Source: Leucoraja ocellata | Taxonomy: Eukaryota | NCBI GenBank assembly: GCA_036785375.1 | Contig: JAWMAR010000025.1 | Span: forward strand, 3,410,001 to 3,474,000 | Direction of reading: 5' to 3' | Length of the DNA: 64,000 nt | In this document: piece after piece, positions 387 to 44,136 of the stretch | Position numbering within the stretch: position 1 is the first letter of the stretch | How the letters are laid out: each line of letters begins with the position of its first letter | The notes under the pieces: model-generated | Databases searched by the model: none | Told to the model about the DNA's origin: nothing | What the model saw: only the letters and a program-made list of their open reading frames with translations | Translations under genes and position numbers: made by a program

Positions 387-460
387 TGCCAACCGTGGCC
401 AAGAACCTGCTTCTGGGATGGGCGGTGATTTTCTGTCACAGTCGCAGTCTACTCGGGTGA
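387..460 (+). pseudogene. Remnant of a CD24/CD52-like paralog; only the GPI-signal end of exon 2 survives
   Basis: Reads PTVAKNLLLGWAVIFCHSRSLLG*, homologous to 22027-22092. At ~376 it is fused directly to sequence equivalent to ~18287, so promoter, exon 1, intron and mucin segment are absent. There is an in-frame TAA at 353. Confidence 0.85.
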
Positions 461-8963: not shown

Positions 8964-8991
8964 CTGAAGAAGGGTTTCGATCCGAAACGTC
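8964..8991 (+). ncRNA. Minimal hammerhead ribozyme motif in a Penelope-derived terminal repeat
   Basis: CTGAAGA-A-GGGT(TTCG)ATCC-GAAAC-GTC: conserved CUGANGA and GAAA core, stem II, palindromic minimal stem III and a GUC cleavage triplet. Confidence 0.65.
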
Positions 8992-9399
8992 GCATATTCC
9001 TTTTCTCCAGAGATGCTGCCTGGCCCGCTGAATTACTCCAGCTATTTGTGTCTATTTTCCGTAAACCGCCCAAGCCTGTTTTATAATGTTTTATGTGAAA
9101 GATTGTTCATTCTTTTTTCTATAATGTAGACTTTGGTTTCAGGACAATGCTGCATGTGTGAAGCACAATGTGTCCTCTTCATTTTGGTGAGCAGAGTTAA
9201 ATCTAAATCTATCGAATTATCAGCTCTGTCCAAGGGCGTCAGCTGCGATTGAAGATTCGTCTGAAAACGCTGGGGTTAGTCCACAAAGTGGGTATGCGTT
9301 TCACGCACAGTATATTTTGGTAAAGCTTTACAAGTTCATTACTCCAACCTCCCCTCCCCTCCCCTCCCCATCGCCCAATCACTTCAATTTGGGTTGGTA

Positions 9400-10110: not shown

Positions 10111-10656
10111 TGTGAAACAGCTGGAATCCACAACTTCACTGTTATCAAGGTCGGAGAAAAAAATAATTGAAAGATAACTAAAGTATTGCAGGTCATGAAA
10201 CTGGATGCCCTGCTGGAAGTTTAACATGTTCTCTTTTCATATTTTACTATTTCTATTGTTTCCGTGAGATATGTTGGCATTTCACTTAAAGCCATGTAAA
10301 ATTAGAGAGCAATAAAAAAAATTATACTGTGCCGATAAAGTGTGTCTAGTTATTAATTGTAATTCCTGCAATAAGCGTGTCTATTTTACAGCACAACCTT
10401 AAGGCTGTGTTAACTACATCCCATCCTGAATTAATCCCAGGAAGTCTCCAATTTAAGTCAATTTTCATTATCATACACAAATCTCCTCTTCCTATTGATA
10501 AACAGCATCTGGTGATCACTCAACATATTTGCTGGATGAATGTTATTCTCTTCTGGGACTTTCATAAAAACGTAAATGCTAGGAGCACAATTAGGCCATT
10601 CGGCCCATAAAGTCTACTCCGCCATTCAATCATGGCTGATCTATCTCTCCCTCCTA

Positions 10657-13600
10657 ATATAATAGTAATATTAAACAAGAATTTACCAGTTTGAAGTTTG
10701 ATCTTTATTTTATGAGGCGTTACGTTGAGGGACTACGTGAAGAGACCCCGTCCAGGCGTACACACGTCAATCTTCAAAGCAGTTGCGCGGAATCACAGAT
10801 GATAGTTACCGAAGCATAATAGTAAGCTACGTGAGATAAACTTAAACGTACATTTGATCTTTATGAGGGTGGGAGCGGAGGGCACGTAGTCCCTCAACGT
10901 AACTCCTCATAAAATAACGATCAAACTTCAAACTGGTAAGGTCTCGTTTAATCTTACCACTTTACTTCGGAGTCACGTGAGTGACTACGTGAAGATTTTA
11001 AAGCTTCTGTGATTTCATGCTGTAGATTCAATCCCGGCGTCTCACTGCATCGATTGACTCTAAATGAGTGAAAACAATCAATAATATCCAGCCATAACAT
11101 TAATGTAATCTGTTACTGTTTTTTTATTATTATTTTTTTTTTATCATAACAAAACATTTTTGTCCCCTTTTTTATCGCAGGGAACATTTAATACTGAATC
11201 CAAAACAGCACCACCAAATACACCAGGGTCTGCAATCTCTTTATGGTAATACTTGTGAGACATCCATTCACTTGCCCATCCTGCGGCCGCGAGGATATGG
11301 TCTATTGGAACGTCCAAATCCTTGGCCGCCGATGTTGCTGCCGCCCTGGTGGAATGAGATTTAAATTTGTCAGTATTAATCCCTGCATCAACCACACCTT
11401 TTCCCAGCCACCTCGAGATAGTCTGTACTGACACTTTCTTATGTCTTTTTTTATGGCTGATAAATAATGCTGATTCTGCACCTCTTAAGTCCTTGGTGGT
11501 CTCAATGTAACATTTTAAATGTGCCACTACACATAGTCTTGGATCCCTAGGATATGCTGCAAAGACCAATTTACACCCCGTGACTCCTGGTCTGCTCTGA
11601 GTAAATCATAGACATAGAATTGCCTCTGTTGTCATTCCCATTATGTCTATACGTAATTTATGTAATGTCTGTACTCTTTGTGCTGAAACTAATGCCATTA
11701 GCATGACTACCTTCATGGTAATTTTGTCTAAAGACAAATTTGAAACGGGACTCCATTCCCGAAGTAACATCACTACATCCCTCACATTCCAGATTTCTGT
11801 ATATCTGGGTCTAGGAGGTTTGGCATTGACAATTCCCTTCATGTACCTACAGACCAAAGGGTGTGATCCTAGAACCTGTTGTTCTGATGCTCTCCATAAA
11901 TATACAGCGAGGGCACTCCTTGCTGTATTAATCGCACTATAACTTAAATTGACATCAAAATGCAGTGTTGACAGAACTTCTAAAACATCTAAGATGTCAG
12001 CCGTGTGGTATGAAATATTCTGCCTTGAGCAAAACACCTCCCATTTCTTATTGTAAGAAATGTACTGCTGGGTACTATCCCTCCAGGCTCCTGCAATTAC
12101 ATCCATAGTGCAATCTGATAGTCCTCTTCCAAGATATGGCCTTTTTAGAATCTGCAAATCAACAAATCAATATGATCATGTAAAAGATGAAAATCACCAG
12201 ATACAGGGTGCACAAGTAGGTTTTCTTGTCTTGGAATACCCATAAGAGGTTCTGTGACCTTTTTTTTTACCTTGGTTGTGTAGGCCAATCTGGGACCACC
12301 AACAATCCTGAAGCAGCGTCCTGCTTGATCTTTTGTAGACACCTACTAGTGAGGTGGAGGAAATGCATATGAAACATTCCACCCCAATTTAGCAAGAATG
12401 CATCCACCGCTGTTGCACCTGAAACATATTGAGGCAATTGGTGGTTCAGTTTAGATGCAAACAAGTCAATTTCTGGAATTCCAAATTTTGCAACAATTTT
12501 ATTAAAATTGTCACGATTTAACATCCATTCTGTATTGTCATTAAATTTTCATGACCTGGTGTCTGCAATTATATTGAATAGGTAGATAGCCGAAAGCCAG
12601 ATGTTTTTGAATAATACACCTGTGCCAGATAACGTTTGCCAATCTGTCACAAGACTCTGACTTGATTCCACCCATGTGATTGACATATCCTACCGCAATA
12701 GTGTTGTCAATCTAAACCTACACATGCAGATTTTGCACATTAGAGCAATAAGCTTTAAGCCCATGAAATGTACTTAACAATTCTAGGTAGTTAATTCCAT
12801 GTGCTTCGAGCAAAGGTACCTCTTCCACATTCCATCTACCTCCACAACTGGTAATGGTATCAGTAGCGCCCCAACCTAGCGCACTTGCATCAGTCTGTAG
12901 AATGATAGGAGGTGATTCAACCAGAATTTTCCTTTGCTTGCTGCAGTTGCTGATAATGCAGTGGAACGAACTGCACAGCTGGGAATGAAGCGATTAGATT
13001 CCCAAGTAAGCTCACCACTTGCCTAATTGATGGTTGATGCTCTGTAATGAGTTTGCTACAACCCTCAATTGACTACAGCGGGATTTTGCGGGATTTAATA
13101 TTATTTGACAGTCTCATCCATAGTCTGTTCTTACAACTGATGGGAAATAATATATAGTTAATACTATTTATTCTGCCAGTGGTTGTCCCTTCAGTCTGGG
13201 ACCTGAGAATTTTTGGGCCAGACCTGGTACTTTGGGCTTTATTATTGGGCTTTGGTCCTCATATGATTCATTATCAGAATCTTCTGGATATTCCTCCTCA
13301 TAGTGGGGTTCACCTGGTATTTTGTCTTCAGGTGTTTCCTGCGCTGGCTCTCTTATAGGCCTACGCTTAGTAAACTCTTTATCGGGTATTCCTCTCACAG
13401 GCTCTTCATAGAAGCCATACTCTGAATGGCCCTTTTTTGGTTGCTGCTAATGCTGGATCTCCTGTAGACCAACGCCTGTATTGTCTTTCCTCAGACATTT
13501 CTGGTGCTGGCTCTCTGCTAGGCCAACACATATATTCTTTTCCTTAAGGCATTTCTGGCGCTGGCTCACTTGTAGACCAACGTTTCCCAGGACCTCTCCT

Positions 13601-14137
13601 GGGTGTTCCATACGCTGGCTCTCCTGTAAGCCTGCCGTAACTGTACTCCTTCTGGAGTGTGCCTTTGTAAATTATTTTTCCTATGTGGAATTTCAATTGT
13701 GCGACCCGATCTTCCTCCGGGTCCGACTCATCCGAGTCTAATGGCCTGTTTGTTTTTCTTTTTGGCCTTACACCTTATAGGTGTTTCAACGGTACTTTAT
13801 CTATAGTCGTTGTTTTCTACAGCTGATTTTTTAATGGGGCACCCGCTACTCTCAGACACTCTGTCCTCTTGAGTTTTTAGCTGCGGTGCTCTTCCCTTTA
13901 CTTTTCCCATTTTTGTCCCTATTTAGACTTGCCCGTTTGCCAGCACACAGTCTCTACGGAAGAAAAATGGCCTGAAGTGAAAGTAAAAATACATACCTTC
14001 AGGTTTTCTTTCACTCACCGCTTGGAGCGGGCTCTGCTCCTTCCAACGTGTTCGCAGTCGCTATGCGTCTGACGATATGACGAGTGTGCGCCTGGACGGG
14101 GTCTCTTCACGTAGTCACTCACGTGACTGAAGTAAAA
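10657..14137 (-). mobile_element. DIRS1-type tyrosine-recombinase retrotransposon, internally deleted and decayed
   Basis: YR fragments at 11144-12157 (SAQR, HSTR, GW..E...KYY). RNase H motif LQTDASALGWGA at ~12860-12900, plus INYLELL and IDLFAS. Inverted termini: 10731-10769 versus ~14078-14116. An internal complementary region at ~10882-10995 matches both ends. Confidence 0.9.
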
Positions 14138-15154
14138 TTCTCCTGCCTTCTCCACAAAACCTCTGGCAGACATCTTTAGATTTTGGAGTTTAATCCCTTG
14201 GGGGTAGAAGAGTCTTGGGGATGGAGGCTATTAAAAACAAATCATCCAAGTTCTATATTGTTTTACTGAAAGTTCAAATCAATCTATTGAGCGGACTGGT
14301 GAGGATCTAATTGAGCTTTACAGCCACTGCCCAATGAAATATTTGGTGTGACAAACAATACTTATGGCACCATCCTCGCAACTCTTCTCTGAACCCTTTC
14401 AAGCTTGACAATATCATTCCTATAACGTGGTGCCCAGAACTGAACACAATATTCTAAATGCAGTCTCACCAACATCTTATACAACTACAATGACCTCCCA
14501 ACTTCTATAATTGACATGGTAAATGTACTACACTGTGGAGAACTCTGCGCGGCTTGAGCTATGGGTGAGGGGTGGGGCAATGATAGGCACAAAGTGGTCC
14601 TGAAACGGGCTGAAGATCAACTCTAGGATTCCTTGTAGAGCCAGTCCTTCTCTCTTCTACGATGATGTCAAGGAGACACCAGCCTCTCTCAATATCCAAT
14701 GACCCACCCCTGGAGAATCATCTCAGTGCACCCCAAGGACTTTACAGCCAGTGATGTAAGCATATCTAACAAGTTTAATTAATTATTGCAGGGAAAGATT
14801 TTTGCATTCAATTACATCCCAACATCAGGACAAATGTTACTACTTTGGGGAAACTGATTGAAAACTAAACATCAATCGCAATGCAGGAGTGAATCCTGGT
14901 GTCACAAACAACGCTATGAGATCCAGTCTCCATATTATCATCTCAGCACAATGTCTCTAATAATACAGTAATCCACCAAGATTCGCCATTGGACAATGCA
15001 GTGTCCTTAACACAGCTTTTATATCCATGCAGGGCTCCCAAAGTGCACCTCCTCCTCTAATTGTGTAATGATCCATCAGACCAATTCTCACTCATTCTTC
15101 TCTTTCCAATTAGATAACATTCCCTCCATACTTCAATAATGTGCCCCTTTAAAG

Positions 15155-15325
15155 TAGGCACAAAATGCTGGAGTAATTCAGCGGGACAGGCTGCATCTCT
15201 GGTGAAAAGGAATAGGTGATGTTTCGGGTCGAGACCTTTCTTCAGACACAACCCGGAACATCACCTATTCCTTTTCTCCAGAGTTGCTGTCTGACCCGCT
15301 CAGTTACTCCAGCTTTTTCTGTTTA
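15155..15325. repeat. Palindromic pair of Penelope-derived terminal repeats (copy ~37167-37337)
   Basis: Left arm gctggagtaattcagcggg...aggaataggtgatgtttcgggt is the approximate reverse complement of right arm acccggaacatcacctattcc...cccgctcagttactccagc. Confidence 0.75.
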
Positions 15326-15944
15326 TGTTCAGAGTAGTGGGCTGAAGGGCCTGTTAGCACGTAACAAAGGCTTTTTACTGTACCTCGGTACAAGTGACAG
15401 TAAACTAAACTAACTAACTGATTTCCATGCTGTCGTTCTAAACTGAAAACTAAACTCTAGATCCTACAACACTGCTGTATTCTCATGGGAAATGTATTTG
15501 GTCTGCAGGGTTATCTCGTCACACTTCCTCAGTACAGCACTGAGATGGTCAATGTAGACTATTTGCTGACTCTCTGGAGTGGAACTTTAGCAGCTCTTTG
15601 CTTTCAGTTGCAATAATGTTTTCCACTGCGTCAATCTGTCTTTAAAGTAAAAATAAAAGCAAACAAAATGTTAACAGGAAGCACAGCTTTGTGAACAGGA
15701 TCTACAGTCTATTGCAAGAGTTCCATTGGCTGAAACACAGCTGCTTCTTGAAATAGGGACAATGGCTGATGCAAGATTCGTAAAGCAACATCTACAGTTC
15801 CCTGTGTCTTTATATTCTCCCGACAATGTATTTGCTATTCACTGTAACAGATGCAGAATCAGGAATTTAACCATGTAGTGTTTTTGAGGGAGTCACACCA
15901 GTGCACTGCTATAGTTCTGATGCGGACACCCGATGATCACTTTT

Positions 15945-16243
15945 AGTTTAGTTTAGTTTAGAGATACGGTGTGGAAACAGGCCCTTCGGCCCACCGAGTC
16001 GATGCCGACCAACGATCCCCGCACTATCGTACACACACACTAGGGACAATTTACAATTTTTACCATTGCCAATTAACCTATAAACCTGCACGTCTTTGGA
16101 TTGTGCGAGGAAACCGGAGCATCCGGAGAAAACACACGCAGGTCTCGGGGAGAATGTACATACTCCATACAGACAGCACCCGTAGTCAGGATCGAACTTG
16201 GGTCTCTGGCGATGTAAGGCACCAACTCTACCGCTGCTCCATC
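15945..16243 (-). mobile_element. HE1/V-SINE-like SINE (copy ~37955-38256)
   Basis: (gttta)n tail on the + strand, reverse B-box ggatcgaac at ~16189 and the conserved SINE core. Confidence 0.8.
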
Positions 16244-18552
16244 CATGGTCCACTTCATGGTCCCGAGCTATTGAAGTGTTAAAGCATCACAAGCAAGCTC
16301 TGGGTTGATCAATGTAACCCAAGTACTGAATTGTAAATTAGTATTTTCAAGTCAAAGGTCGATTTACCTCTTTTTTGGAAACTGCAGAATTTTTTTTTTA
16401 ACTGAAACATTTAAAAAATATTGTAATCATCTGTAATGAAATAAATTTTTTTGATAGATTGACTCAGTGGAAAACATGAGGGGGCGGGGTGGGGGGCAGG
16501 GGGGCAGGGTGAAGAGAAGAAAGCTGGGAAAGGGAGAGGTAGTTGAAAGCCTCTCAGATAAAAGGTCGACACAGGCGACGGGGATGTTTTTGACAGGCAT
16601 ATTGTTGCAACAAAGGCCAGAGATAAGAGCAATAGGTAGGGTTGAAGAGTTGCAGATTGTGACGCCTGGAATGTAGCAGGAGCGGGGGGGAGTGGAGGGG
16701 AGAATTAGATGGAGGTCCAGGTGGAACGAGCTGCCAGATGATATTGTTGAGACAGGTGATATTGCAACATATAAGAAACATTTAGACAGGTACATGGATA
16801 GGTCAGATTTAGAGGGAATGTGGACCAAACGCAGATAGGTGGGACTAGTGTAGATGGGATATGTATGCCCGTGTTGGCAAGTTGTGCCGTAGGGTCTGTT
16901 CCCATTGCTGCAAGACTCTATGACTCCAGGTGGGGCCCTGGGGAGTTGGGGGGGGGGGGGGGGGGGGGGGGGGGGTGGTGGTGGTGAAGGGTGGTGAGGG
17001 GGGGGGGGGGAGAGGGTGCAAGAAAAAAATGTGTTCTCTGTCTACTCACCTTTGGTAATCATCCTATCCCACACCGCCAACTCAAAGTCTAAAGGTTCCT
17101 CATGACCTTCTGTACACATTTTCTCCGTGTGAATGTGGCATCCTTTCTCAGACAGCAGGAACTGTTATTGCTGCTTGAGAACGCTAGGTGGTGATTTAGC
17201 ACCACATCAAGATCAGAATGGTTGTGACCTTGGGGGAAGAAAGGCATTTTATTGACTAACGATCGTAATGGAAAATCAATGTTACAAAGGTTTCCTTTGG
17301 TCAAGGGCGAGTCTACTTTTGCATTCCAGAGTGTTCAATATATTTCGTATTCAAGATGGACTTCTGATCTCACACTTCCTCCATGATGAGGACTCTTTAT
17401 AATCACTCTGCCTGTGGCTCAGGTTACCCCCAACACTCATTCACAAAATATTACCTTTAAGCAGTTACACCAATGCTGTCCCAGCCAGTCTTTCACCATT
17501 TTCGATTAAGCCAATTAATTCAAAATGTTGGTAAGTTTGTCATGATGTGGTGGCACAATGTTGAATTTTGGCCAATAATGTTCCTGTGCTGCACTTAGGG
17601 ATGCATTAGTACATTAAACTATATACACTTAAATCTCTGTCAAATAACAGATGTGTTACACAACTAATAATCTGCAAGTAACAATGGGAAAGAAACAATG
17701 TACTTGTTGAAGGTGCTTGTTCCAATTGGGTGGAGAAGTTCCCGTTGGAAGATAATAACAATTGTTTGAACCTAAAGATTTCTAATCAACGCATTCTATT
17801 TCCCTTCTAATTGTTGCGAATGGGTGGAGTCAACACAACTCTAAAGCCAACTACTACATGGCTATGATTTCATGGTAATTCAAAAGATTTTCTCCAGTCC
17901 ATTTCAGAAAAAGAAAGTCACAATTTCTAGACACACTCAGGACCCATGAATGTAAATTATATTATAATGTGGCCTATTCTTCTCATCAATACTTATCCCT
18001 CCCATAATAATCATTGCCCTAGATGGACCAAGCCGGGCTTTGACCAAGTGTGGCATCAAGGAGCCCTGGTATAATTGGCATTAAAAGGAAAGAAAGGAGG
18101 TTGTGATTGTTGGAGGTCAGTCATCCAAGCCAGGATACCACTGAAGAGTTCCTCAGGTCACTGTCCTATGTCTAATTGTCCTTTATTGTTTCACCAAGGG
18201 CTTTGCTCAATGAGGCACCGTCTGGAAATACAGACATTATGGTGATCTGGGAAGCACAATGTCTAATTTGTGCACTGCACAATCCCAGAAAACATTACTT
18301 AATAGCAACTAAATCTGTTTTGTGGGATTTTATTTCTCACCCAGAGTTGTGAATCTGTGGGCAGTGGAGGCCAATTCACTGGATGTTTTCAAGAGAGAGT
18401 TCTTAGGCCTCTAGGACTAACAGAATCAAGGGATATGGGGAGAAAGCAGGATTTTGATATTGATTTTGGATGATCAGCCATGATCATATTGAATGATGGT
18501 GCTGGCTCAAAGGGCCGAATAACCTACTGCTGCACCTACTGCTGCACCTGAT

Positions 18553-19700
18553 GTAAGGTAGGGAGGGGGGGGGGGGGAGGTGGGGAGAAGAAAGGAGAAA
18601 GGAAGAGGAGGAGCCAGAGGGCTGAGGGAGAGCTGAGAAAGGGAGGGGACAGCAAGGACTACCGGAAATTGGGGAAGTCAATGTTCATGCCGCTAGGCGC
18701 TGCTCCTCCAATTTCTGGTGGTGCTCACTTGGGCCATGGAGGAGGCCGAGGACAGAAATGTCGGATTCGGAATGGGAGGGGGAGTTGAAGTGCTGAGCCA
18801 CAGGGAGATCAGGTTTGTTAATGCGGACTGAGCGGAGGTGTTCGGCGAAACGATCGCCAACCCTACACTTGGTCTCGCCGATGTAGATCAGCTGACATCT
18901 AGAGCAGCGGTTGCAATAGATGAGGTTGGAGGAGGTGCAGGTGAACCTCTGTCACACCTGCAACGACTGCTTGGATCCTTGAATGGCGTCGAGGGGGAAG
19001 GTAAAGCGACAAGTGTAGCATCTCTTGTGGTTGCAAGGGAAAGTGCCCGGGGAGGGGGTGGTGCCGGAGGGGAGGGAAGAATTGTCCAGGGAGTTACGGG
19101 GGGAACGGTCTTTGCGGAAAGCAGATGGGGGGGAGATGGGAAGATGTGGCGGGTGGTGGGGCCACGTTGGAGGTGGCGAAAATGACGGAGGACTATTCAT
19201 TTTATGTGACGGCTAGTGGGGTGAAAGGTGAGGACTGGGGGGACGCTGCCTTTGTTATGATTGGGAGAATGGAGAGAGAGAGCAGTGTTACGGGGTATTG
19301 AAGAGACCCTGGTGAGAGCCTCATCTATAGTAGTGGAAGGGAACCCCCCGTTCCCTGAAAAATTAGGACATTTCCGATGCCCTGCTGTGGAACACCTCAT
19401 CCTGGGAGCACATGCAGCGTAGACGGAGGAATTGGGAGTAGGGGATGGACCCTTACAGGAAGCAGGGTGGGAAGAAGTGTAGTCTGGGTAGCCATGGGAG
19501 TCAGTGGGTTTGTAGTGGATGTCGGTCAGAAGTCTATTACCTGCGATGGAGATAGTGAGGTCAAGAAATGGTAGGGAAGTGTCGGAAATGGTTCATGTGT
19601 AATTGAGTGTCGGATGGAAGTTAGTGGTGAAGCAGATGAAGTCAGTGAGTTGTGTGCGGGTGCAGGAGGTAGCACCAATGTAATCGTCGATGTAGCGGAG
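18553..19700 (-). mobile_element. Penelope-like element fragment (RT C-terminus + GIY-YIG endonuclease)
   Basis: Minus-strand translation gives VLTFHP...CNHKRCYTC...FTCTSSNLIYC..CSRCQLIYIGETK...RFAEH, with stops and frameshifts. Confidence 0.85.
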
Positions 19701-20675
19701 GCACCTTCGATTTTCCAGCATCTGCAGTTCCTTCTTAAACAATAATTCAGTATAGTTTATTGTCTGTGTAGCGAGGTTCAGTGAAAAGCTTTTGTTGTGT
19801 GCTAACGAGCCAGCAGAAAGAAATACATGATTACAATCAAGTCATCCACAGTTTGCAGATACACGATAATGGATCAGAGTTTAAGTAAGAAATGTTGCTG
19901 TAGGAGTAGATTTGAAATGTGGATTGATTGTAATATGAGATTGCAGATCTGCTTCTGTGGCTAGCATGCAAGTAGTCGCCTGGGTTGGGCGCCATCTTGG
20001 AAGCGTCCATATTTACCTTGTACAAGTGGCTGTTTCCTATATCACTGACACCAGTTCAGACTGAAAAATTCAGGCTCCACTATCCCACGTTTTGTTCATT
20101 ACAGGAAAAAGGTCTGCCATCTCTGCATAATGCAGGGTTAGGTAAGTGGAAAGAGATACCAGCAACTGTAGATGCTGCTTTTCAATAAATGACACAAAGT
20201 ACTGGTGTAACTCAGCGGCTCAGGCAGCATCACTGGAGAACATGGATCGGTGACATGTTGTAGATTGATTGTGGGGGAAGGGGGGTGGAAGGTGGAAGAG
20301 AGGAGGGGCAGGACAAAGTCAGGCAGGCACAGGTGAGGGGTGGGGGTGGTTTCCATAAATAGATGGTTGGACAAAGACCAGAGATGAAAAGACAAAAAGA
20401 TGTGAGATGAGGATAGATGAGGTGGGAATTGTGAAGCAAGACTGTTAGCTGTTAACTTTGTGGATTTGGACTAGGAAGGATTCAAGGCAGGCATCCAATC
20501 AAGTATTAACATTCAATCTGATAAAGCAAAGAATTATAATTCGTTTAACCCTGTCAATCATTAACCTGTGAGGTTCGTCATCCTACAAGAGAGCAACATT
20601 GTGATTAATTGCGCACAGCAGTGAAGTGCCAGAGTCAAAGACAGCAGCAGCCTTGTGCAAAAACAAAAGAACCAA

Positions 20676-20729
20676 ATGAAGACGTTTATACTCAGCCTGT
20701 GTTGTCTCGTCCTGGTGCTGCTGACAATG
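20676..20729 (+). CDS. Exon 1 (signal peptide) of CD24/CD52-like GPI-anchored glycopeptide, paralog A
   Basis: ATG with A at -3. Encodes MKTFILSLCCLVLVLLTM (basic n-region plus hydrophobic h-region). Followed immediately by the donor GTATGT at 20730, phase 0. Confidence 0.85.
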
Positions 20730-21254
20730 GTATGTAAAACATCTTCAAAAACTTTGGCTATTGCTTTTCTTTCCCCTCCACTACAGCTTCTTCTTCTAGT
20801 TTTCTCTCTCGTACTCTGGCACCTCAGTCACAGCCATTTATTCCACCCTGATCTTGTGGTGTGTTTGTATTGTATTGGGATTGTTCTCACCCTGGTTGCT
20901 CTCTCTCCTTCCTCTGGTGAGGCACTACTGAAGGTGAAGAAGCGCTTCATGTCAATGCAATTAAGTCTACATGGAGCGGGAACAAAACCCAAGAACTTTA
21001 TTCCTCTTTGGGCCCCATTATTTGGAACATTTCCTTCTTCGTATCTTTTAGGCCATCTTGCTTGATGGTTTAACATGCCCAGTGCTGTTGGTGAACATAT
21101 TTACCCTTTGAATAACATACGTGTTGCAAGATTAGCTCTGTTGCTGGTGGCTGAATTATTGTCCGTTTATCCATTTATATGAATTATTCTCGTTTATCTT
21201 GAGTCTCTTGTTTTCAGTTAGTTACAGTAGACAATCCCCTATCCATGCCAATGT

Positions 21255-21750
21255 TTTACCCTTTAACAACGAGTAAAGAGGCTGCAGAGAGTGATGGGCT
21301 CAGCCTGGTTCATCACAGGCACAGGTACAGCCCTTCTGACCATCGGAGGGATCTACACGAGCTGCTACTTCAAGAATTTGGCATCTATTATCAAGAATCC
21401 CCACCAGCTGGGGAATTCCTTCTTCTCGCTGCTACCATTGGGCAGGAGGTACTGAAGCCTGAAGACCCACACCACCAGGTCCAGGAATAGTTAATTTCCT
21501 TTTACCATCAGGTTCTTGATCTGACCTCACTCAAACCTAATCCAACCTCAGTAACTGTGCATTACGCACTACCTCTAGCACCACCACGGACTAGTTGTGG
21601 TTTGCACTAATGTCTTGTCTTTGTGCAGTCTTTTTATTTTTCTCTATCTTGCAGAATGTGTATAAACTTTATGTTTTTGCATGTTGTCTATGTGTCCCCG
21701 ATGCTGATTTTCATTGCATTTATACACTATACTGGTGTAAACGGCAAATA
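21255..21750 (+). mobile_element. Degenerate Rex1/Babar LINE 3' fragment within the gene intron (copy ~43190-43683)
   Basis: Frame fragments KRLQRV...SIIKNPHQ.G..FFSLLPLGRRY.SLKTHTTR..NS.FP, typical of Rex1/Babar C-termini. Confidence 0.7.
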
Positions 21751-21909
21751 CATTTTGGCTTAAGATCTTATTCTGTGCAGATCAGCCGCTGCATTACACA
21801 GTATGATCCCAAACCCACTGTGGCCTGTTTTTAGAAAGGACAAATGCGACTGCAGTTTTGGATGCTCCAATTTATTTTATAACCTTCTTCTCTCTTGTTT
21901 GTATGACAG

Positions 21910-22092
21910 ACAACGAAATCCAACGCTGCAAAGCCAACTGAACCAACGAATTCCACCACTACAGAGCCAACTGAACCAATGAATTCTACACCCGAACCTA
22001 CAACTCCTAGCAACTCTGGCAGCCTGCCAACCGTGGCCAAGAGCCTGTTTCTGGGATGGGCGATGATTTTCTGTCACAGTCTACTCGGGTGA
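21910..22092 (+). CDS. Exon 2 (mucin-like peptide + GPI-anchor signal) of CD24/CD52-like gene, paralog A (78-aa precursor)
   Basis: Pyrimidine tract plus acceptor cttcttctctcttgtttgtatgacAG. In frame with exon 1: TTKSNAAKPTEPTNSTTTEPTEPMNSTPEPTTPSNSGSLPTVAKSLFLGWAMIFCHSLLG*. Small-residue omega region (S-N-S-G), spacer, hydrophobic tail ending at the stop. Confidence 0.85.
   Translation, partial: TTKSNAAKPTEPTNSTTTEPTEPMNSTPEPTTPSNSGSLPTVAKSLFLGWAMIFCHSLLG
21928..21993 (+). repeat. Coding 33-bp (11-aa) tandem repeat, 2 units
   Basis: gcaaagccaactgaaccaacgaattccaccact / acagagccaactgaaccaatgaattctacaccc = AKPTEPTNSTT / TEPTEPMNSTP. Confidence 0.9.
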
Positions 22093-23684
22093 AGCCTCCA
22101 ATCGACCGAAGGACTGGGACATTGCGGATTTCCATTAATCTCTGCAATGTTGCTATCAATAATTCATATCCAAATTAATATGCTGTATTTCTAATCTGTG
22201 ATATATCTCTGAGTAAGAATAAGATGTTATTCAGTTTAAAGAGATTGTTAAAACATACATTGATTATTGTTCTACAGGAAGTATTTCTTAAGCCACCCGT
22301 CGACTTGACCTTTAGTTTTTGGGTTTTAATGGAGATATTAAAATTCTGTGAAAAAATAATGAATAATTGAGGAATTGTAAATGGATTATTTATAGTTTGA
22401 GCAACATTCGCTTCCAGTGGAGCAACTGATAGAGCTGCAGCCTCACAACGCTGGATATGCCGGTTCGATCCTGACCACCGTTGGTGGCTGTGTAAAAATG
22501 TTGCATGTTCTCTCTGTGACCATGTGGGTTTCTTCCGGTTGCTCCAGTTTCCCCCGACACGGCAAAGACATGCGGGTTGTAAATTGCCCCTAGTGTGCCG
22601 GGAGTGTATGAGAAAGTGTGATAGCATTGGAATTCGTTTTACGGTCGGGCGTGGACTCTGTGAGCCGAAGGGCCTGTTCCCATGCTGTATCTATAAACTA
22701 AACAGGGCTGAATACCTTTACCAGCAATAACAAAGTCCATCTCATATGCAGTTCACTGTCTTTGTCACACAATAAAATGTTGAGAGGTTCATGGAATTTG
22801 AGTCCAAGTTATGGAGGCTGGAAAAATCTAGGCTTCCGAACTCAATCTTTGAGTTACCGCCATTCCTCTCAGTATTGCTTTAATAAATCCATGTATTTTG
22901 GCAAGCACAGGGCAGGAGAACAGGATGATAACTATCTCATTCTTTAATCGCAAAGTATGTGATTTGCAATTGAACTGATAGCTTTTGATTTCTCAACTAA
23001 TAAATTTGGATGGTGATTCATTTCAATTTATAGATGACGATGAAGTTGCGCAATGAGGTATAAGCTGCAATCGTGTTACGAACAGGTACCATTTTTACAG
23101 ATCCGTCCATAACTTATTTTTTGTAAAATGCACAAATATCACTCTATATGGTAACCCCACTGACACAATAGTGTAATGAATGGAATTAAAAGCCCATAAC
23201 ATTAATAAGAAAGAACAATTGTAATATATGGAGATTAATCCAGTTCTGCCATTCGTAGGGACAATTAGCCTACAGCTAATCAGTCTTTAGAATTTAGTAT
23301 TATTATTGGAGTTGGTTCACATGTATCATCCATAACCTGGGACAACCTGTTTGCTGAATGTGGGCGTTTTATTAACTCTTGCAATACACTTTCCTGGATT
23401 TATCTTCCAATGCTCCCAACTGACGTACACTTCATGTTACTTTCTTCTTCCCTTTTACAGATTCATCAATTCGGAAAATTAGGAATACAGATTATTTAGT
23501 AGACACATAGAACAGCAGATGCTGGACTACAAAATAAGATACAAAGTGCTGGGGTAAATCAGCGGGTCAGGCACATCTCTTGAGGACATCTGGTACGTGG
23601 CATTTAGGGGCCAAGTCTGAAGAAGGGTCTGAAGAAGGGTCTCGACCCAAAACGTCACACAGGAGCAAAATTAGGCACAAAATT

Positions 23685-26653
23685 AGAAACATAGAAAATA
23701 GGTGCAGGAGTAGGCCATTCGGCCCTTCAAACCTGCACCGCCATTCGATATGATCATGGCTGATCATCCAACTCAGTATCCCGTACCTGCCTTCTCTCCA
23801 TACCCCGTGATCCCTTTAGCCACAAGGGCCACATCCAACTCCCTCTTAAATATAGCCAATGAACTGGCCTCAACTACCTTCTGTGGCAGAGAATTACACA
23901 AATTCACCACTCTCTGTGTAAAAAATGATTTTCTCATCTCGGTCCTAAAAGACTCCCCTCTTATCCTTAAACTGTAACCCCTAGTTCTGGACTTCCCTGA
24001 CATCGGGAATAATCTTCCTGCATCTAGCCTGTCCAACCCCTTAAGAATTTTGTAAGTTTCAATAAGATCCCCTCTCAATCTTCTAAATTCTAGGGTATTC
24101 AAGCCGCGTCTATCCAGTCTTTCTTCATATGAAAGTCCTGCCATCCCAGGAATCAGTCTGGTGAACCTTCTCTGTACTCCCTCTATGGCAAGAATGTCTT
24201 TCCTCAGATTAGAAGACCAAAATTGTACGCAATACTCCAGGTGTGGTCTCACCAAGACCTTGTACAACTGCAGTAGAACCTCCCTGCTCTTATACTCAAA
24301 TCCTTTTGCTATGAATGCTAACATACCATTTGCATTTTTTCACTGCCTGCTGCACCTGCGTGCCTACTTTCAATGACTGGTGTACCATGTCACCCAGGTC
24401 ACGTTGCATTTCCCCTTTTCCTAGTCGGCCGCCATTCAGATAATAATCTACTTTCCTGTTTTTGCCACCAAAGTGGATAACCTCACATTTATCCACATTA
24501 TACTGCATCTGCCATGCATTTTCCCACTCACCCAACCTATCCAAGTCACCTTGCAGCCTCCTAGCATCCTCCTCATAGCTAACACTGCCCCCCAGCTTCG
24601 TGTCATCCGCAAACTTCGAGATGTTGCATTCAATTCCCTCATCCAGATCATTAATATATATTGTAAATAGCTGGGACCCCAGCACTGAGCCTTGCGGTAC
24701 CCCACTAGTCACTGCCTGCCATTCTGAAAAGGACCCGTTTACTCCTACTCTTTGCTTCCTGTCTGCCAGCCAGTTCTCTATCCCCATCAATACTGAACCC
24801 CCAATACCGTGTGCTTTAAGTTTGCAAACTAATCTCCTATGTGGGACCTTGTCGAAAGCCTTCTGAAAGTCCAGATATAACACATCCACTGGTTCTCCCT
24901 TATCCACTCTATTAGTTACATCCTTGAAAAATTCTATAAGATTCGTCAGACATGATTTACCTTTCATAAATCCATGCTGACTTTGTCCAATGAATTCACC
25001 ACTTTCCAAATGTGCTGCTATCCCATGTTTAATAACTGACTCCAGAATTTCCCCCACCACCGATGTTAGACTAACTGGTCTGTAATTCCCCGTTTTCTCT
25101 CTCCCTCCCTTTTTAAAAAGTGGGGTTACATTAGCTACCCTCCAGTCCTCAGTAACTACTCCGGAATCTAAAGAGTTTTGAAAAATTATCACTAATGCAT
25201 CCACTATTTCTGCGGCTACTTCCTTAAGTACCCTGGGATGCAACTTATCTGGTCCTGGGGATTTATCAGCCTTTAATCCATTCAATTTACCTAACACCAC
25301 TTCCCGGCTAACCTGGATTTCACTCAGTTCCTCCATCTCATTTAACCCCCATCCCTTGCTATTTCCGGCAGATTATTTATGTCTTCCTCAGTGAAGACAG
25401 AACCAAAGTAGTTATTCAATTGGTCTGCCATGTCCTTGTTCCCCAAGATCAATTCACCTGTTTCTGACTGCAAGGGATCTACATTTGTTTTAACTAATCT
25501 TTTCCTCTTCACATATCTATAAAAACCTTTGCATTCAGTTTTTATGTTCCCTGCTAGTTTTCTTAAATAATCTTTTTTCCCTTCCCTTCCCGCTGCACCA
25601 AAAAAACCCAGAATATAATAAAGGACATCTCCCACCCCGGACACTCCCTGTTTGAACTGTTGCCGTCAGGCAGACGGTACAGATCCACAAGGACAAGGAC
25701 AAATAGACTAAAAAACAGTTTTTACCCCACTGCTATAAAAGCACTAAATGTAGCCGCCAAGGAACGCAGGGGCGATACAGACTAAGGGACTGTGGTAACG
25801 GTGAAATCGACAGAAGGATGGAGGGTTGGGTGTGTATGCGTGCTTTGTCTGTGATATTTATTTATTTGCTTATCTTTATTATTTTACCGTGGATGTTTCG
25901 TTAGCTTTAGAAATGTTTGAATGCTGCACTGACTGGCTGACATTTTAAATTTCGTTGTACATGGCCCATGTTACAATGACAATAAAGAAACTATTCTAAT
26001 TAAGCCTTTTGTCCTCCTTTGCTGGACTCTGAATTTCTCCCCGTCCTCTGGCTGCTTTTTCAGGGTAATTTGTACGCTTCATCTTTTGTTTTGATACTAT
26101 CCCTGATTTCCCTTGTTATCCACGGATGCACTACCTTCCCTGATTTATTCTTTTGCCAAACTGGGATGAACAATTGTTGTAGTTCATCCATGCAGTTTTT
26201 AAATGCCTTCCATTGCATATCCACCGTCAACCCTTTAAGAATCATTTGCCAGTCTATCTTGGCCAATTCATGTCTCATACCCTCAAAGTCACCTTTCTTT
26301 AAGTTTAGGACCCTTGTTTCTGAATTAATAATGTCACTCTCCATCCTAATGAAGAACTCAACCATATTATGGTCACTCTTGCCCAAGGGGCCCCGCACAA
26401 CAAGACTGCTAACTAACCCTTCTTCATTACTCAATACCCAGTCTAGAATAGCCTGCTCTCTCGTTGGTTCCTCTATATGTAGATTGAAGTCCCCCATTAT
26501 AACTGTTTTACCTTTGTTGCGCGCATTTCTAATTTCCTGTTTGATGCCATCCCCAACTCCACTACTACTGTTAGGTGGCCTGTACACAACTCCCACTAGA
26601 GTTTTCTGCCCTTTAGTGTTTCGCACCTCTACCCATATCAATACCACATCCGC
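23685..26653 (-). mobile_element. CR1 LINE, duplicate of 2045-4680, interrupted by a Rex1/Babar insertion
   Basis: ORFs 26060-26686 (endonuclease), 24296-25336 (RT) and 23773-24324. Shares the KKCKWY frameshift with the first copy. Confidence 0.95.
25588..25998 (+). mobile_element. Rex1/Babar LINE 3' fragment, present only in this unit
   Basis: Encodes IIKDISHPGHSLFELLPSGRRYRSTRTRTNRLKNSFYPTAIKALN and ends acaataaag...ctattct. Absent at the paralogous site ~3938. Confidence 0.85.
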
Positions 26654-29054
26654 CATTCTGCCCATTGAGTTTACTCCGCCATTCAATCATGGCTGACGTA
26701 TTTATCCTTCTCACCCCATTCTGCCTTCTCCCAGTAATCTTTGACGCCCTTACTAATCAAGAACCAATGAATCTCTGCTTCAGAAATACCAACCTATCCA
26801 TGTTGTCCAGGGATGCTGCCTAGCGTAATGAGTTACTCCAGCACTTACTGTTTTTTGATAGATTATCTGGCACTGTCTGTACGCAGAACCAACATTAGAA
26901 CGATTGTCTGAAGAAGAGCCTCGACCTGAAACGTCACCTATTCCTTCGTTCCATAGGTGCTGCCTCACCCGCTGAATTTCTCCAGCATTTTTGTCTACCT
27001 TTGATTTTTCCAGCATCTGCAGTTCTTTCTTAAACAGTAGAACTATTGTAAGTCACAGGGTTTTTCATGAAAATGGGAATAATCAGAATATGCCGCAAAT
27101 ATTCAATCCCGGAAACAACTGGAGAATGAAACAGGTAATAATTTTGGTCAGTGTTATTTCATCCCTCTAGTGAATGACCATTGAGTCACACAGTAGGTAA
27201 ATAAGTCCCTCCTGTCTGTTTCACCATTGAGTCCATCTACACTAGTCACAAATCCCCCCAGGCTTTGTCGTGGTTACCGATACTCAATATTAAGTCAGGC
27301 GACGCGGAGAATTCTTCAAGAAGTTCAAACCTTTATTTGCAAATAAGGGCTGGGACACTCAAAGAGTTAATCGTTTGACTGCCCGCGTCAGACAAAGAGT
27401 TGCTTCTTGTTATGGCATGTTTAACTCTGTACATCCCACCCCCAGTATATTTCCATACCCAATCACTTGCAGACATTCCCTTATCAATAACCAATCACTC
27501 ACAGGCAAATCTCCCCTCCTGCCACAGTTATTTTCCATCTTTTAATCCATCCTTGTTTAAATCACATGACTTCTCCTATCTCGGCGACCTTATCTCTTGT
27601 TCATCCAGTGGTCACCACCAGTCACAATGATTTACACTAATCACAAAACAAGCTGCGAAAGAACACAAAAGTTTACACAAGGTTTCCAAAAACAAACTGC
27701 AAAGAATACAGAGCACAACAGTTAAAATACAAGCCGCAAAAATACAAAATTAAAATACAAAGGATATAAGGGGTTGGACAGGCTAGATGCAGGAAGATTG
27801 TTCCCGATGTTGGGGAAGTCCAGATCAAGGGGTCACAGTTTAAGGATAAGGGGAAAATCTTTTCGGACCGAGATGAGAAAAACATTTTTCATACAGAGAG
27901 TGGTGAGTCTCTGGAATTCTCTGCCGCAGAAGGTAGTTGGGGCCAGTTCATTAGCTATATTTAAGAGGGAGTTTGATGTGGCCCTTGTGGCTAAAGGGAT
28001 CAGGGTACTGAGTTGGATGATCAGCCATGATCATATTGAATGGCGGTGTAGGCTCGAAGGGCTGAATGGCCTACTCCTGCACCTATTGTCTATTGTCTAA
28101 AAGTTAAAAGTTAAAATGACTGATTTCTGTACGTCCATAGCATCCATCAACCCCTACCTCAATTCTCAATTTTCCTTCCAATCACTTATACTAAGCATGG
28201 GCGGAAATCGCTTTTAAAACATGGGGGGGACACAATGAGGCTTAACGTCTAGGACAGGGGTCGGCAACCTACGGCCGAAATCAACCAGCCTGCAGCCGGT
28301 TTTATTTCAATTAGTTTTCGCGACCTGGGTGCTACAGCCAGTTCCAGGACATGCAGGCAACCTGGGCACTACAGCCAGACCTGGGGCAGGCGAGCCGACC
28401 TGGGAACTTCAGCTAGTCCCGGGCTGCTAGATTCTAGGAGCTGGCGGCTTCCAACTGGAATCGACCTTGAGGGCTCCGGTCAGTGGGTCAGTCACACTAA
28501 CACTGTGACATTTGGTAATGACTCACTCTGTATAAATGATATCTGACTTGCCGAGTGTTTCAAGCATTTTCTGTTTCTTTTATTGCAGGGTTTCAATCAC
28601 CTGATGCAATTTTTCAACTTTACAATATTTGGGAAACATGACAAACAATAAATTAACGGTTTCGGATGAGGGAGTATAAAAACGAATACTGTTGGCAATA
28701 TTGCTTGAGGGAATAATCTCAGCTGTGTGAAGGGAAGATATATTTAAAAGATCATCAGATGAGGCTTTACCAGTTGAACTAATCTTCTTCTTCTTGCATA
28801 TGACCTGCGCAGCCTAATGTTCTTGGACAATTTGTTCTATTTGATCTATTTGTTTGTGCACGTTGGGTTGTTTGCACTAGTCGAAACAGGGTGGACCACG
28901 TGAAGGTTGCAATCTCCCACCCCAGTTGAACTAATGAAAAAAGTGTAATTACAGTTATGAAATGTTCTATAGATTGCCAAACAATCTGACAGAGCAGAGC
29001 AAATGTATCAGCAAAATTCTGAATAGGACCAAATCACTAAGGGATTAATAATGT

Positions 29055-29303
29055 TGTAGCGGACGCGGAGTTGTCCGATAAACAACGAGGCAGACACGAA
29101 GTTTGTCCGAAAATACTGTCTTTTATTGCTACACTAATTCTCCTCGCTCACCAAGTCCGTGCGTGCGCGGTTAACCCCTTAAATACTCCCCAGGGGCACC
29201 CGAGACCACGCCGTGTCCCCTACCTCTCAGCACTGGGACATTTGACCCCCCCAAGAGCTGAAGGTTATGTACAGTGCGTGGCCCACCACCCAGTGCCGCC
29301 ACA
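29055..29303. mobile_element. Solo LTR, duplicate of 7066-7314
   Basis: Same TG...CA termini and atgt/ctgt flanks. Confidence 0.8.
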
Positions 29304-30952
29304 CTGTGATAATAATATCAATTTAGACAGTAAGTGTAAAGGCATGGAGGCACAGAATTCATAAACTTCTTATCGAGTTCACATCAGAAGATTAGAATTT
29401 GTTCAGCCAGAGCTGAACACACTACTTGGCATCTGCATAAAATGGTGTCTTGTGCTTCTTGTGAGTAGTGGTGCAGAGATTGGTGGAAACAGGGCCGGGA
29501 CGTGAACGCTCTTTCCTTCACCCCAATCATAAACTGAAATAATGAGAATGTTTTCAGCGATATGTTGTAAATCCATTGAGAAGGGATGGAAGTGGATGGA
29601 ACAGGGAGGGTGGTAGAGAGGGAGAGACAAAAGGGGGCATGGGGGTAAAGGGGTCGGTTAGGGAGAAGAAAGGGGTAGATGGGGTCAGACAGGAAGGGGA
29701 AAGGAATTGCAATTCAGGGATTAGTTATGGGAATGAAGCTTGGTGTTTGGAAGAAGTAGCAGTAAGAGAGCATTGTTTCATCATATGTTTTATTTCTTCT
29801 CCGTGGATTGTCACCTTGTCGTGGTGGAGAAGCTTGTGTGGACCTCAGATCCTGAGAACAATGCCGTCTGGAGCTGTGCTCCTGTTAGGGTCACCCATGG
29901 CGGTAAGGTCGAGGGGGAGGTCTCTGACAAAGAGCAATCCTACGAAGAACCTCAACGGTGGAACAGGTGGCGGACGATGGCTGACCTTAGTGGAGCGTCA
30001 CAATGGCTGGGAAGGCGGATGAAGGCTGCCGCAGAAAAGGGTCTCTGGTCGTCTTGGTCTCCATGTCAGTGGAACCTGACCCAGAACTGCCAAGGACCGT
30101 GGGGTGTCTGTCTGTGCACCAGTCTCCCCACGTTAAATAAAGCCACACACAGGTGTCTCCATATAGGGAATAGCACCCTGGAGACACCCATGGTCAGCCA
30201 TTACCGAAGGGTGTCTAAGGTCTAAAGGTGGCTGTCAGCATTATGGATATGCTCAATTTTTTGAAGAGGTCACTAAAGACACACTTCAAATACGTACAGG
30301 TTTGTAGGGTTGCGGCTTCGGAGAGCAGTAGAGGCCGGTTCTCTGGATACATTCAAGAGAGAACTAGATAGGGCTTTTAAAGATAGCGGAGTCAGGGGAT
30401 TTGGGGTGAAGGCAGGAACGGGGTACTGATTGGGGATGATCAGCCATGATCACATTGAATGGTGGTGCTGGCCTGAAGGGCCGAATGGCCTACTCCATCA
30501 CCTATTGTCTACTGTCTATTGTCTCAATTACACGTTGCACCTGCCCGTGTTTGGTCCATATCCCACCAAAGCTGTTTCAGGTGATCATTGGCCAACCTAT
30601 CCGCACTGACCAATGATCACCTGTACACTAGTTCTATGTCCTACACACGAGAGGGCAATTTAGAGTCGCCATTTAACTTGCTAGCCTTTGGAATATGTGA
30701 GGAAAACAGAGCACGTGGAGAAATCCCACAAACTGTACATTCATTTGATCCAACAAACCCACAACGTTTTTGAATAATCCTACCTGCATATACTCATTGT
30801 CAGACACATTATACCCCACAGCCAACAACAGACCATTGTGGGCTCCAATTTTTCTTTATCATCATTACTTTATACATATCTTTGTTTCATTTATTCTATA
30901 TATCTCTTATAACCATCTATATCTTTCGTTTCCCTGTCCCCTGACTCTCAGT

Positions 30953-30980
30953 CTGAAGAAGGGTTTCGATCCGAAACGTC
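30953..30980 (+). ncRNA. Minimal hammerhead ribozyme motif (duplicate of 8964-8991)
   Basis: CTGAAGAAGGGTTTCGATCCGAAACGTC. Confidence 0.65.
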
Positions 30981-42593: not shown

Positions 42594-42647
42594 ATGAAGA
42601 CGTTTATACTCAGCCTGTGTTGTCTCGTCCTGGTGCTGCTGACAATG
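42594..42647 (+). CDS. Exon 1 (signal peptide) of CD24/CD52-like gene, paralog B
   Basis: Identical to 20676-20729. Donor GTATGT at 42648. Confidence 0.85.
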
Positions 42648-43842
42648 GTATGTAAAACATCTTCAAAAACTTTGGCTATTGCTTTTCTTTCCCCTCCACT
42701 ACAGCTTCTTCTTCTAGTTTTCTCTCTCGTACTCTGGCACCTCAGTCGCAGCCATTTATTCCACCCTGATCTTGTGGTGTGTTTGTATTGTATTGGGATT
42801 GTTCTCACCCTGAGCGAAACTCACCCTGGTTGCTCTCTCTCCTTCCTCTGGTGAGGCACTACTGAAGGTGAAGAAGCGCTTCATGTCAATGCAATTAAGT
42901 CTACATGGAGCGGGAACAAAACCCAAGAACTTTATTCCTCTTGGGGCCCCATTATTTGGAACATTTCCTTCTTCGTATCTTTTAGGCCATCTTGCTTGAT
43001 GGTTTAACATGCCCAGTGCTGTTGGTGAACATATTTACCCTTTGAATAACATACGCGTTGCAAGATTAGCTCTGTTGCTGGTGGCTGAATTATTGTCCGT
43101 TTATCCATTGATATGAATTATTCTCGTTTATCTTGAGTCTCTTGTTTTCAGTTAGTTACAGTAGACAATCCCCTATCCATGCCAATGTTTTACCCTTTAA
43201 CAACGAGTAAAGAGGCTGCAGAGAGTGATGGGCTCAGCCTGGTTCATCACAGGCACAGGCACAGCCCTTCTGACCATCGGAGGGATCTACACGGGCTGCT
43301 ACTTCAAGAATTTGGCATCTATTATCAAGAATCCCCACCAGCTGGGGAATTCCTTCTTCTCGCTGCTACCATTGGGCAGGAGGTACTGAAGCCTGAAGAC
43401 CCACACCACCAGGTCCAGGAATAGTTAATTTCCTTTTACCATCAGGTTCTTGATCTGACCTCACTCAACCCTAATCCAACCTCAGTAACTGTGCATTACG
43501 CACTACCTCTAGCACCACCACGGACTAGTTGTGGTTTGCACTAATGTCTTGTCTTTGTGCAGTCTTTTTATTTTTCTCTATCTTGCAGAATGTGTATAAC
43601 TTTATGTTTTTGCATGTTGTCTATGTGTCCCCGATGCTGATTTTCATTGCATTTATACACCATACTGGTGTAAACGGCAAATACATTTTGGCTTAAGATC
43701 TTATTCTGTGCAGATCAGCCGCTGCATTACATAGTGTGATCCCAATCCCACTGTGGCCTGTTTTTAGAAAGGACGAATGCGACTGCAGTTTAGGATGCTC
43801 CAATTTATTTTATAACCTGCTTCTCTCTTGTTTGTATGACAG

Positions 43843-44136
43843 GCACCGAAATCCAACGCTGCACAGTCAAATAATGCACTGAAACCCAACTCTACAAATT
43901 CAACTGAAGCAACGAATTCCACCACTACAAAGCCAACTGAAGCACCGAAAACCACCGCTATAAAGCCAACTGAAAAACCGAAACCCACCGTTACAAAGCC
44001 AACTGAAAAACCGAAACCTAGCCAGACATCCAAACCCGAACCTACAACTCCTAGCAACTCTGGCAGCCTGCCAACCGTGGCCAAGAGCCTGTTTCTGGGA
44101 TGGGCGATGATTTTCTGTCACAGTCTACTCGGGTGA
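43843..44136 (+). CDS. Exon 2 of CD24/CD52-like gene, paralog B (115-aa precursor)
   Basis: Acceptor ...ttctctcttgtttgtatgacAG. Reads APKSNAAQSNNALKPNSTNSTEATNSTTTKPTEAPKTTAIKPTEKPKPTVTKPTEKPKPSQTSKPEPTTPSNSGSLPTVAKSLFLGWAMIFCHSLLG*. The frame is preserved despite being 111 nt longer than paralog A. Confidence 0.85.
   Translation, partial: APKSNAAQSNNALKPNSTNSTEATNSTTTKPTEAPKTTAIKPTEKPKPTVTKPTEKPKPSQTSKPEPTTPSNSGSLPTVAKSLFLGWAMIFCHSLLG
43861..44025 (+). repeat. Coding 33-bp (11-aa) tandem repeat, 5 diverged units
   Basis: AQSNNALKPNS / TNSTEATNSTT / TKPTEAPKTTA / IKPTEKPKPTV / TKPTEKPKPSQ. Confidence 0.9.

Follow-up and report, generated by a model that had tools for sequence, protein, structure and literature searches.

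A small glycopeptide gene beside UBXN11 in a skate genome, a probable positional ortholog of CD52

Introduction

CD52 is the target of alemtuzumab and an immune suppressor. Human CD52 is made as a 61-aa precursor with a 25-residue GPI signal (supplement of PMC6395743), and its mature peptide is given as 12 residues (PMC6065011), so that 24 residues are left for the leader. A role in sperm is described in PMC9630641. The human gene sits between AIM1L, also named CRYBG2, and UBXN11 (10.1101/2021.04.07.438882), and mouse Cd52 was once called a de novo gene, a verdict from which synteny rescued it (PMC6239577, PMC11662153). The history of CD52 is described as mammalian, or as common to mammals, in PMC11662153, and that of CD24, whose precursor has 76–82 residues, is traced in PMC9680537, citing Ayre 2016, to before the reptile–bird split. 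Titles and abstract openings in literature listings report no fish or chondrichthyan CD52; annotations and the supplements of genome papers could hold one.

The chromosomal setting of these genes has been described for cartilaginous fish in PMC7662092, according to which the znf683/aim1l region is a duplicate of the prdm1/aim1 region that predates chondrichthyans. In the elephant shark, as reported there, ubxn11, sh3bgrl3 and cep85 have moved upstream of znf683, which is flanked by prep and crybg2.

Here we describe a small gene on skate contig C25, in a stretch of 64,000 nucleotides that we call the window; unprefixed feature coordinates refer to it, and positions elsewhere are given by contig. 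The gene is real and hidden, with good positional evidence from one genome, one cDNA contig of a sister copy and no sequence homology. It is probably the positional ortholog of CD52.

Gene model and copies

The original prediction placed a two-exon gene in the window, with a phase-0 GT–AG intron at 20730–21909 and a 78-aa product, and we reproduced this model exactly from the sequence. In this copy, here called B, the ATG lies at 20676 and the TGA stop ends at 22092. Coding exon 1 (20676..20729, + strand) holds 18 codons for the n- and h-regions of the signal peptide. The 1180-nt phase-0 intron (20730..21909, +) begins with GT after 20729, ends with AG before 21910 and contains a high-copy repeat at approximately 21276–21650, where DNA depth is very high. 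Coding exon 2 (21910..22092, +) encodes the end of the leader, a Thr/Pro/Ser peptide with two sequons, the predicted omega site, a hydrophobic tail and the stop. An in-frame stop precedes the ATG, the frame opening at 20625. The 5′ untranslated part of exon 1 (20588..20675, +) takes its start from a cDNA contig of C/D type, and 20588 may be a fragment end rather than the true transcript start. The likely 3′ untranslated region (22093..22342, +) has its end placed by the first of several poly(A)-like signals, ATTAAA at 22337, which is followed by AATAAA at 22771, 22882 and 22999.

The gene is repeated in the window, a feature that had been missed: there is a second intact copy, C, and a tail-only remnant, A. 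Copy C consists of coding exon 1 (42594..42647, +), an intron of 1195 nt (42648..43842, +) and coding exon 2 (43843..44136, +), and encodes a 115-aa product with three sequons and 11-residue Lys/Pro/Thr/Glu repeats. A further copy, D (G000:C25:3315541-3317149), encodes a 137-aa product and likely lies on the other haplotype. The coding sequence of exon 1 and the hydrophobic tail are each the same in copies B, C and D. Copy A (387..460, +) retains hydrophobic-tail codons only, with a 6-nt insertion that keeps the frame, and is without promoter, exon 1, intron and stalk, the deletion being equal to approximately 18288–22024; it is an older duplicate that has decayed.

Copies B and C each stand at the end of one of two tandem units of approximately 22 kb (4499–21986 and 26472–43919), which are 97.5% identical. 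Each unit also carries, once, broken frames resembling a tyrosine recombinase (11144–12166 and 33783–35004, − strand), which we presume to derive from a DIRS-type retroelement, and frames of CR1-type LINEs occur in the window at 2134–4713, 23773–26696, 50898–53638 and 62315–63706. On a larger scale, C25:3270692-3382237 repeats 3382805-3515662 at approximately 98% identity across a 200-N gap, and other genes, too, are present twice in the assembly. The first block is a probable uncollapsed haplotype, set in tandem with its partner across the gap. For these reasons we read copies C and D as probable alleles, two 11-residue repeats apart, and copy B as probably an extra, short-stalked copy that a recent tandem duplication of 22 kb has added to one haplotype; that C and D are true duplicates, instead of alleles, is the alternative. 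Several such haplotype doubles are found in the assembly, where copy counts are inflated.

The locus family is a real gene. The sole coding difference between C and D is a 66-nt block, the two 11-residue repeats, and B and C differ by a 33-nt indel, a net 78 nt (57 + 1 + 20 as aligned) and 9 substitutions. The net coding indels between copies, 33, 78 and 66 nt, are all multiples of 3 and fall in the Thr/Pro-rich repeat, whereas the intron indels measure 16 and 1 nt. Coding indels that keep the frame, set against intron indels that do not, provide independent support for the reality of the gene.

Transcription and the status of copy B

Of six listed sequencing runs, none of them on record as RNA, four were compared with the gene (X1, X2, X3 and X6). 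A single contig of 304 nt from X6, a run whose RNA status is a guess, covers 20588–20730 at a depth of 9.9 and then continues straight into exon 2, skipping the intron. Its 22-nt 5′ overhang is absent from the window and the genome and contains an adapter that occurs in 5 papers and is reported for 454 cDNA libraries (PMC4176332). An extra upstream exon, for which this loose end was a candidate, was rejected because the sequence is non-genomic and holds the published adapter. The contig shows that the gene family is transcribed and loses this intron by splicing, and nothing in it points to an exon farther upstream. Spliced transcripts had been proposed as a check on the gene model: skipping of the intron is borne out by the X6 contig with C/D letters, and the 20729/21910 joint with B letters was not seen in the runs compared. 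In the remaining runs, X2 and X3 behave as DNA, with the intron covered, and X1 matched two repeat pieces only.

Copy B may itself be a silent or decaying duplicate, with only the C/D gene expressed, a reading that we regard as a genuine possibility and do not favour; it concerns the coordinates of copy B alone and is compatible with a CD52 ortholog in the family as a whole. The sole spliced contig has the letters of C/D, not B, past the joint, and of the 4 diagnostic sites in its 5′ part, 3 disagree with B, 1 with C and 1 with D. This cDNA, however, derives from a different sample (S5), in which B may be absent. Similarly, B is seemingly present on one haplotype only and lies next to copy A, which has already decayed, yet B retains its promoter region, both splice sites, the frame and the tail. 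Nor is B an invention of the assembly: DNA contigs from X2 and X3 (21769–22019) carry the B-specific letters of exon 2 with no difference, with the proviso that the two runs may not be independent of the assembly. The B-specific contigs have depths of 5.0 (X2) and 14.1 (X3), and those of C/D type 14.5 and 35.3; such depths do not measure copy number.

Leader, stalk and chance controls

Leader and omega sites were called by hand rules, combining hydropathy with a small-residue scan, and have the standing of rules of thumb. The N terminus of copy B is hydrophobic (best 11-residue mean 3.28), and the small-residue rule predicts cleavage of the leader after residue 24. Residues 25–54 comprise 13 Ser/Thr, 7 Pro and zero Cys, with N-S-T sequons at residues 32 and 43. 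By these hand rules we see the CD24/CD52-type plan ascribed to the locus at the outset, with a leader, a Cys-free glycopeptide with two N-S-T sequons, a hydrophobic tail and no cytoplasmic segment. The description of the mature part as a tiny peptide of approximately 30 aa holds for copy B (residues 25–54) and fails for the expressed form, whose stalk has 67–89 residues; across the three copies the mature stalk measures 30, 67 and 89 residues.

Loosely defined, such a plan turns up readily by chance. A loose architecture filter, run over 744 kb of C25 and four 894-kb controls, returned 7 paired matches in C25, of which 3 are the gene copies, and 5, 5, 0 and 2 in the controls; because it passes control DNA as often as real DNA, the plan by itself is poor evidence. 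With a strict filter, whose settings were chosen once the gene was known, the three copies were the sole finds across 1.0 Mb of real DNA, and 25 Markov controls, 25.1 Mb in total, gave 0 paired matches. The codon and splice tables used in the filters are approximate.

Position in the CD52 neighbourhood

Approximately 744 kb of C25 (3.17–3.914 Mb) were read for neighbouring genes. The order on the contig is a CEP85-like gene (+), UBXN11 (−), the small gene (+), PSAT1-like exons, a PREP-family gene (−), a gene with PR/SET and C2H2 domains (+) and crystallin exons (+); the choice between CEP85 and CEP85L, and the names SH3BGRL3, ZNF683 and CRYBG2, were made by family and position. The upstream CEP85-type gene matches Pfam CC4_CEP85 at an E value of 5e-11. 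UBXN11 is encoded on the minus strand (ATG at 3267925) and stands head-to-head with the small gene, 47.6 kb away on the haplotype of copy D, and a heuristic exon scan recognised no other gene between the two. At least 45 of the 52 proteins matched in the UBXN11 exon search carry that name, the best named matches coming from skate (97%) and sawfish (89%). These matches agree with the cartilaginous-fish source that had been supposed, and the skate match, being the best, places the animal among skates. An SH3BGR exon lies directly past the 3′ end of UBXN11 on the alternate contig C3381; none was found between the CEP85-like gene and UBXN11 on C25, where there is a scaffold gap. Several extra, weaker SH3BGR-domain exons are also present beside one strong copy at G000:C19:11579309-11646053 and on C32, suggesting local expansion.

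Downstream of the small gene, intron-containing exons resembling phosphoserine aminotransferase (G000:C25:3485602-3489787, −; Pfam E 0.009), which we take to be PSAT1, have several usually conserved residues that look altered. A paralog of prolyl oligopeptidase (PREP family) follows at G000:C25:3622070-3631163 (−), and a PRDM1/ZNF683-type gene with its PR/SET domain kept lies in the ZNF683 block at G000:C25:3770883-3795710 (+). Four crystallin half-motif exons of CRYBG type (3989609–4011976, + strand) are located approximately 535 kb downstream of the small gene. Elsewhere in the genome, a large cluster of gamma-crystallin-type genes is present twice, at G000:C66:7.51-8.18 Mb and on C1269.

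The small gene occupies the human CD52 slot, with the strand orientation of the human region used in this comparison being our assumption. The order on C25 is that of the elephant shark, the small gene having stayed with UBXN11. A comparison of flanking genes with the CD24 and CD52 regions, suggested when the gene was first flagged, comes out positive for the CD52 region, with UBXN11, SH3BGR and the CEP85-like gene close by and CRYBG-type exons farther off. UBXN11 is adjacent, within the CEP85–SH3BGRL3–UBXN11 block, but CRYBG2 (AIM1L) is not the other immediate neighbour, the PSAT1-like, PREP-family and PRDM-type genes intervening; a rearrangement breakpoint separates the small gene from CRYBG2, and only one flank is immediate.

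Sequence searches returned no relatives. The Pfam CD52 model (PF15116) had no match on exon 2 at E values up to 10, two of the three queries being the longer copies, nor at the locus in the genome. Among protein collections, 0 of 25 candidates (lengths 53–170) proved to be relatives of copy C exon 2 and 0 of 6 (lengths 106–2000) relatives of the tail, in searches that used exon 2 queries only and depend on shared words. The single full HMMER match, a tandem repeat of 3655 aa hit 42 times over the Thr/Pro part, was rejected as low-complexity noise. The CD52-slot gene was found in one genome only, with no relative in other species among the protein collections searched. As no match came from close skate species in these exon 2, shared-word searches, the result suggests that the gene is unannotated there.

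The absence of HMM and protein homology to CD52 or CD24 would also be expected if the locus held a small GPI-anchored mucin of unrelated origin, which had arisen at, or landed by, UBXN11 in the skate lineage and resembled CD52 by convergence. We consider such an origin unlikely. Failure of sequence searches is expected for CD52 because homology searches fail even between mouse and human (PMC11662153, PMC6239577), and the slot beside UBXN11 is filled, with no other gene recognised between in the heuristic scan. A convergent mucin would be in keeping with the repeat-based stalk, which is unlike that of human CD52, with an unstable locus that has seen three rounds of duplication or deletion, and with the commonness by chance of the loose form of the plan; against it, the lengths of the leader and tail equal those of the human precursor. 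The small gene is, in our judgement, probably a positional ortholog of CD52.

Membrane anchor and proposed function

The rule-of-thumb scan gave three omega candidates in copy B, S52, N53 and S54, which leave 26, 25 or 24 residues behind them. The tail is without charge in its last 15 residues and has a best 11-residue hydropathy of 1.98, and its hydropathy over 19 residues is moderate (mean 1.43). By hand rules, the protein follows the general plan of a GPI signal: a leader, an omega cluster of small residues, a spacer, an uncharged hydrophobic end and no cytoplasmic tail.

A real gene without GPI, whose tail stays on as a short membrane anchor or whose product is secreted as a mucus glycopeptide, would be compatible with the moderate hydropathy, with the His and Cys in the tail and with an anchor call that rests on hand rules. 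It is nonetheless improbable in view of the small-residue cluster 24–26 residues from the end, the polar spacer, the uncharged end and the missing cytoplasmic segment, and the tail is unchanged in B, C and D and in frame even in remnant A.

We favour a GPI-anchored product, which quite probably works like CD52 and CD24. Removal of the intron, seen for the C/D form and presumed for B, would yield a chain whose leader of approximately 24 residues, recognised by hydropathy and the small-residue rule, would direct it into the ER and then be cut off. GPI transamidase would take off the last 24–26 residues and attach the anchor at Ser52, Asn53 or Ser54 of B. The presumably unfolded stalk of 30–89 residues has visible sites for 2–3 N-glycans and many O-glycans, which would be occupied in the mature protein. 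The result would be a glycan scaffold that lacks a cytoplasmic part. On leukocytes and/or in the male tract it would serve as a sialylated coat and as a ligand for lectins, and it may also be shed; this role, drawn by analogy with human CD52, is tentative, with the balance a little short of even. Because CD33-related Siglecs vary among vertebrates (PMC11176514), Siglec-10 cannot be assumed as the partner.

The CD24 side

The resemblance of the tail had been taken as a lean towards CD24, and this lean found no support. The CD24-side genes, namely an RTN4IP1-like gene (ADH_N), a QRSL1-like amidase, MTRES1 and a BEN-domain array, lie on a different contig, C72, and the Pfam CD24 model (PF14984) had no match on exon 2 at E values up to 10, nor at this locus. 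Human CD24 presumably lies between QRSL1 and MTRES1/BEND3. In an ESM Atlas feature search, copy B brought up a CD24 cluster in third place at 0.80, a score that one in three shuffled proteins also attains; the longer copy C did not bring up CD24, and all Atlas scores were <0.9 and count as leads only. That the small gene is the CD24 ortholog, as this third rank and a 78-aa precursor near the CD24 range of 76–82 might hint, is highly improbable given the CD24-side neighbours on C72, with a candidate first exon of their own there, and the negative results with copy C in the Atlas and with Pfam CD24.

The candidate exon on C72 (G000:C72:7317969-7317907, −; locus L111) has 21 hydrophobic codons and a strong phase-0 donor. 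It is head-to-head with MTRES1, on the strand opposite to that gene and approximately 23 kb upstream of it, has a TATA-like box approximately 240 nt before its own ATG, and is unique save for a second haplotype copy at C72:8550760 (+), shorter by one base. A scan of 260 kb brought up no second exon, and both copies run into assembly gaps (7315425 and 8551826). The filter let through four exon-like sites of this kind in the 110 kb of C72 concerned, and the candidate is a lead only. The same contig holds a BEND3-like expansion of approximately seven tandem genes with frames of 686–769 aa and 3–4 BEN domains each (G000:C72:7375054-7529350), an array that recurs in inverted orientation at 8410396–8500400.

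Tentatively, and with some doubt, CD52 and CD24 may be sisters from whole-genome duplication that both survive unannotated in cartilaginous fish, the C72 exon then being the start of skate CD24.

Implications

If the small gene is the positional ortholog, CD52 would be as old as adaptive immunity, of jawed-vertebrate age and not a mammalian invention, and a duplication origin in common with CD24 would gain support. If CD52 and CD24 are indeed sister genes, their family would date to the jawed-vertebrate ancestor, and ancestral CD52 would have had a longer mucin stalk, with variation in allele length and in gene copy number. In that case a search by position should bring hidden orthologs to light in bony fish, amphibians and reptiles. 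For any vertebrate genome, the recipe for finding CD52 is to look beside UBXN11. The locus raises the questions of which lectin recognises the glycan in animals with CD33-type Siglecs unlike our own, and of what lies behind the variation in stalk length and copy number inside a single animal.

Comparison with known systems

Small GPI-anchored or membrane mucins with PTS repeat polymorphism form a general class, with which the skate gene shares a Thr/Pro-rich repeat stalk and allelic length variation. Unlike members of that class, it has no SEA, EGF or folded domain and no transmembrane-plus-cytoplasmic part, and its products are <140 aa; the Pfam Mucin match to exon 2 reached an E value of 2 only.

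Mature CD24 has approximately 30 residues, like copy B. The plan of the two proteins is the same, the organisation of the CD24 gene is said to resemble that of CD52 (PMC6065011), and CD24 lies in the paralogous block, prdm1/aim1 as against znf683/aim1l (PMC7662092). The skate gene differs in that the CD24 neighbours are on C72, where a separate candidate first exon fills the slot, and in that the CD24 profile does not match it.

From CD52 the skate gene differs in the length of its mature part, which is 12 residues in human and 30, 67 or 89 in skate (2.5 to 7 times as long), in its 2–3 sequons against 1, and in a stalk with 11-residue tandem repeats, length polymorphism and copy-number variation. 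Sequence homology is undetectable, and CRYBG2 is no longer adjacent in skate. The two also have points in common: the human leader has 24 residues and the C-terminal signal 25, compared with 24 and 24–26 predicted in skate from rule-based sites, and in each the mature part is Cys-free and Ser/Thr-rich with an N-glycan site. By eye, human and skate share Pro-Ser-x-Ser at the anchor site and a Met-Lys-x-Phe start; over the first 24 residues, 5 identities are seen, also by eye, which is not significant, as any two leaders could match so. The skate gene has two coding exons with a phase-0 intron after codon 18, exon 1 encoding most of the leader; the human gene, with two coding exons, may have its intron at the corresponding place, after codon 18. 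Although the CD52 profile and the mature length fail, and the gene falls short of a proven CD52, we file it as a CD52 variant and positional ortholog, seated beside UBXN11 in the CEP85–SH3BGRL3–UBXN11 / ZNF683 / CRYBG2 group, as CD52 is.
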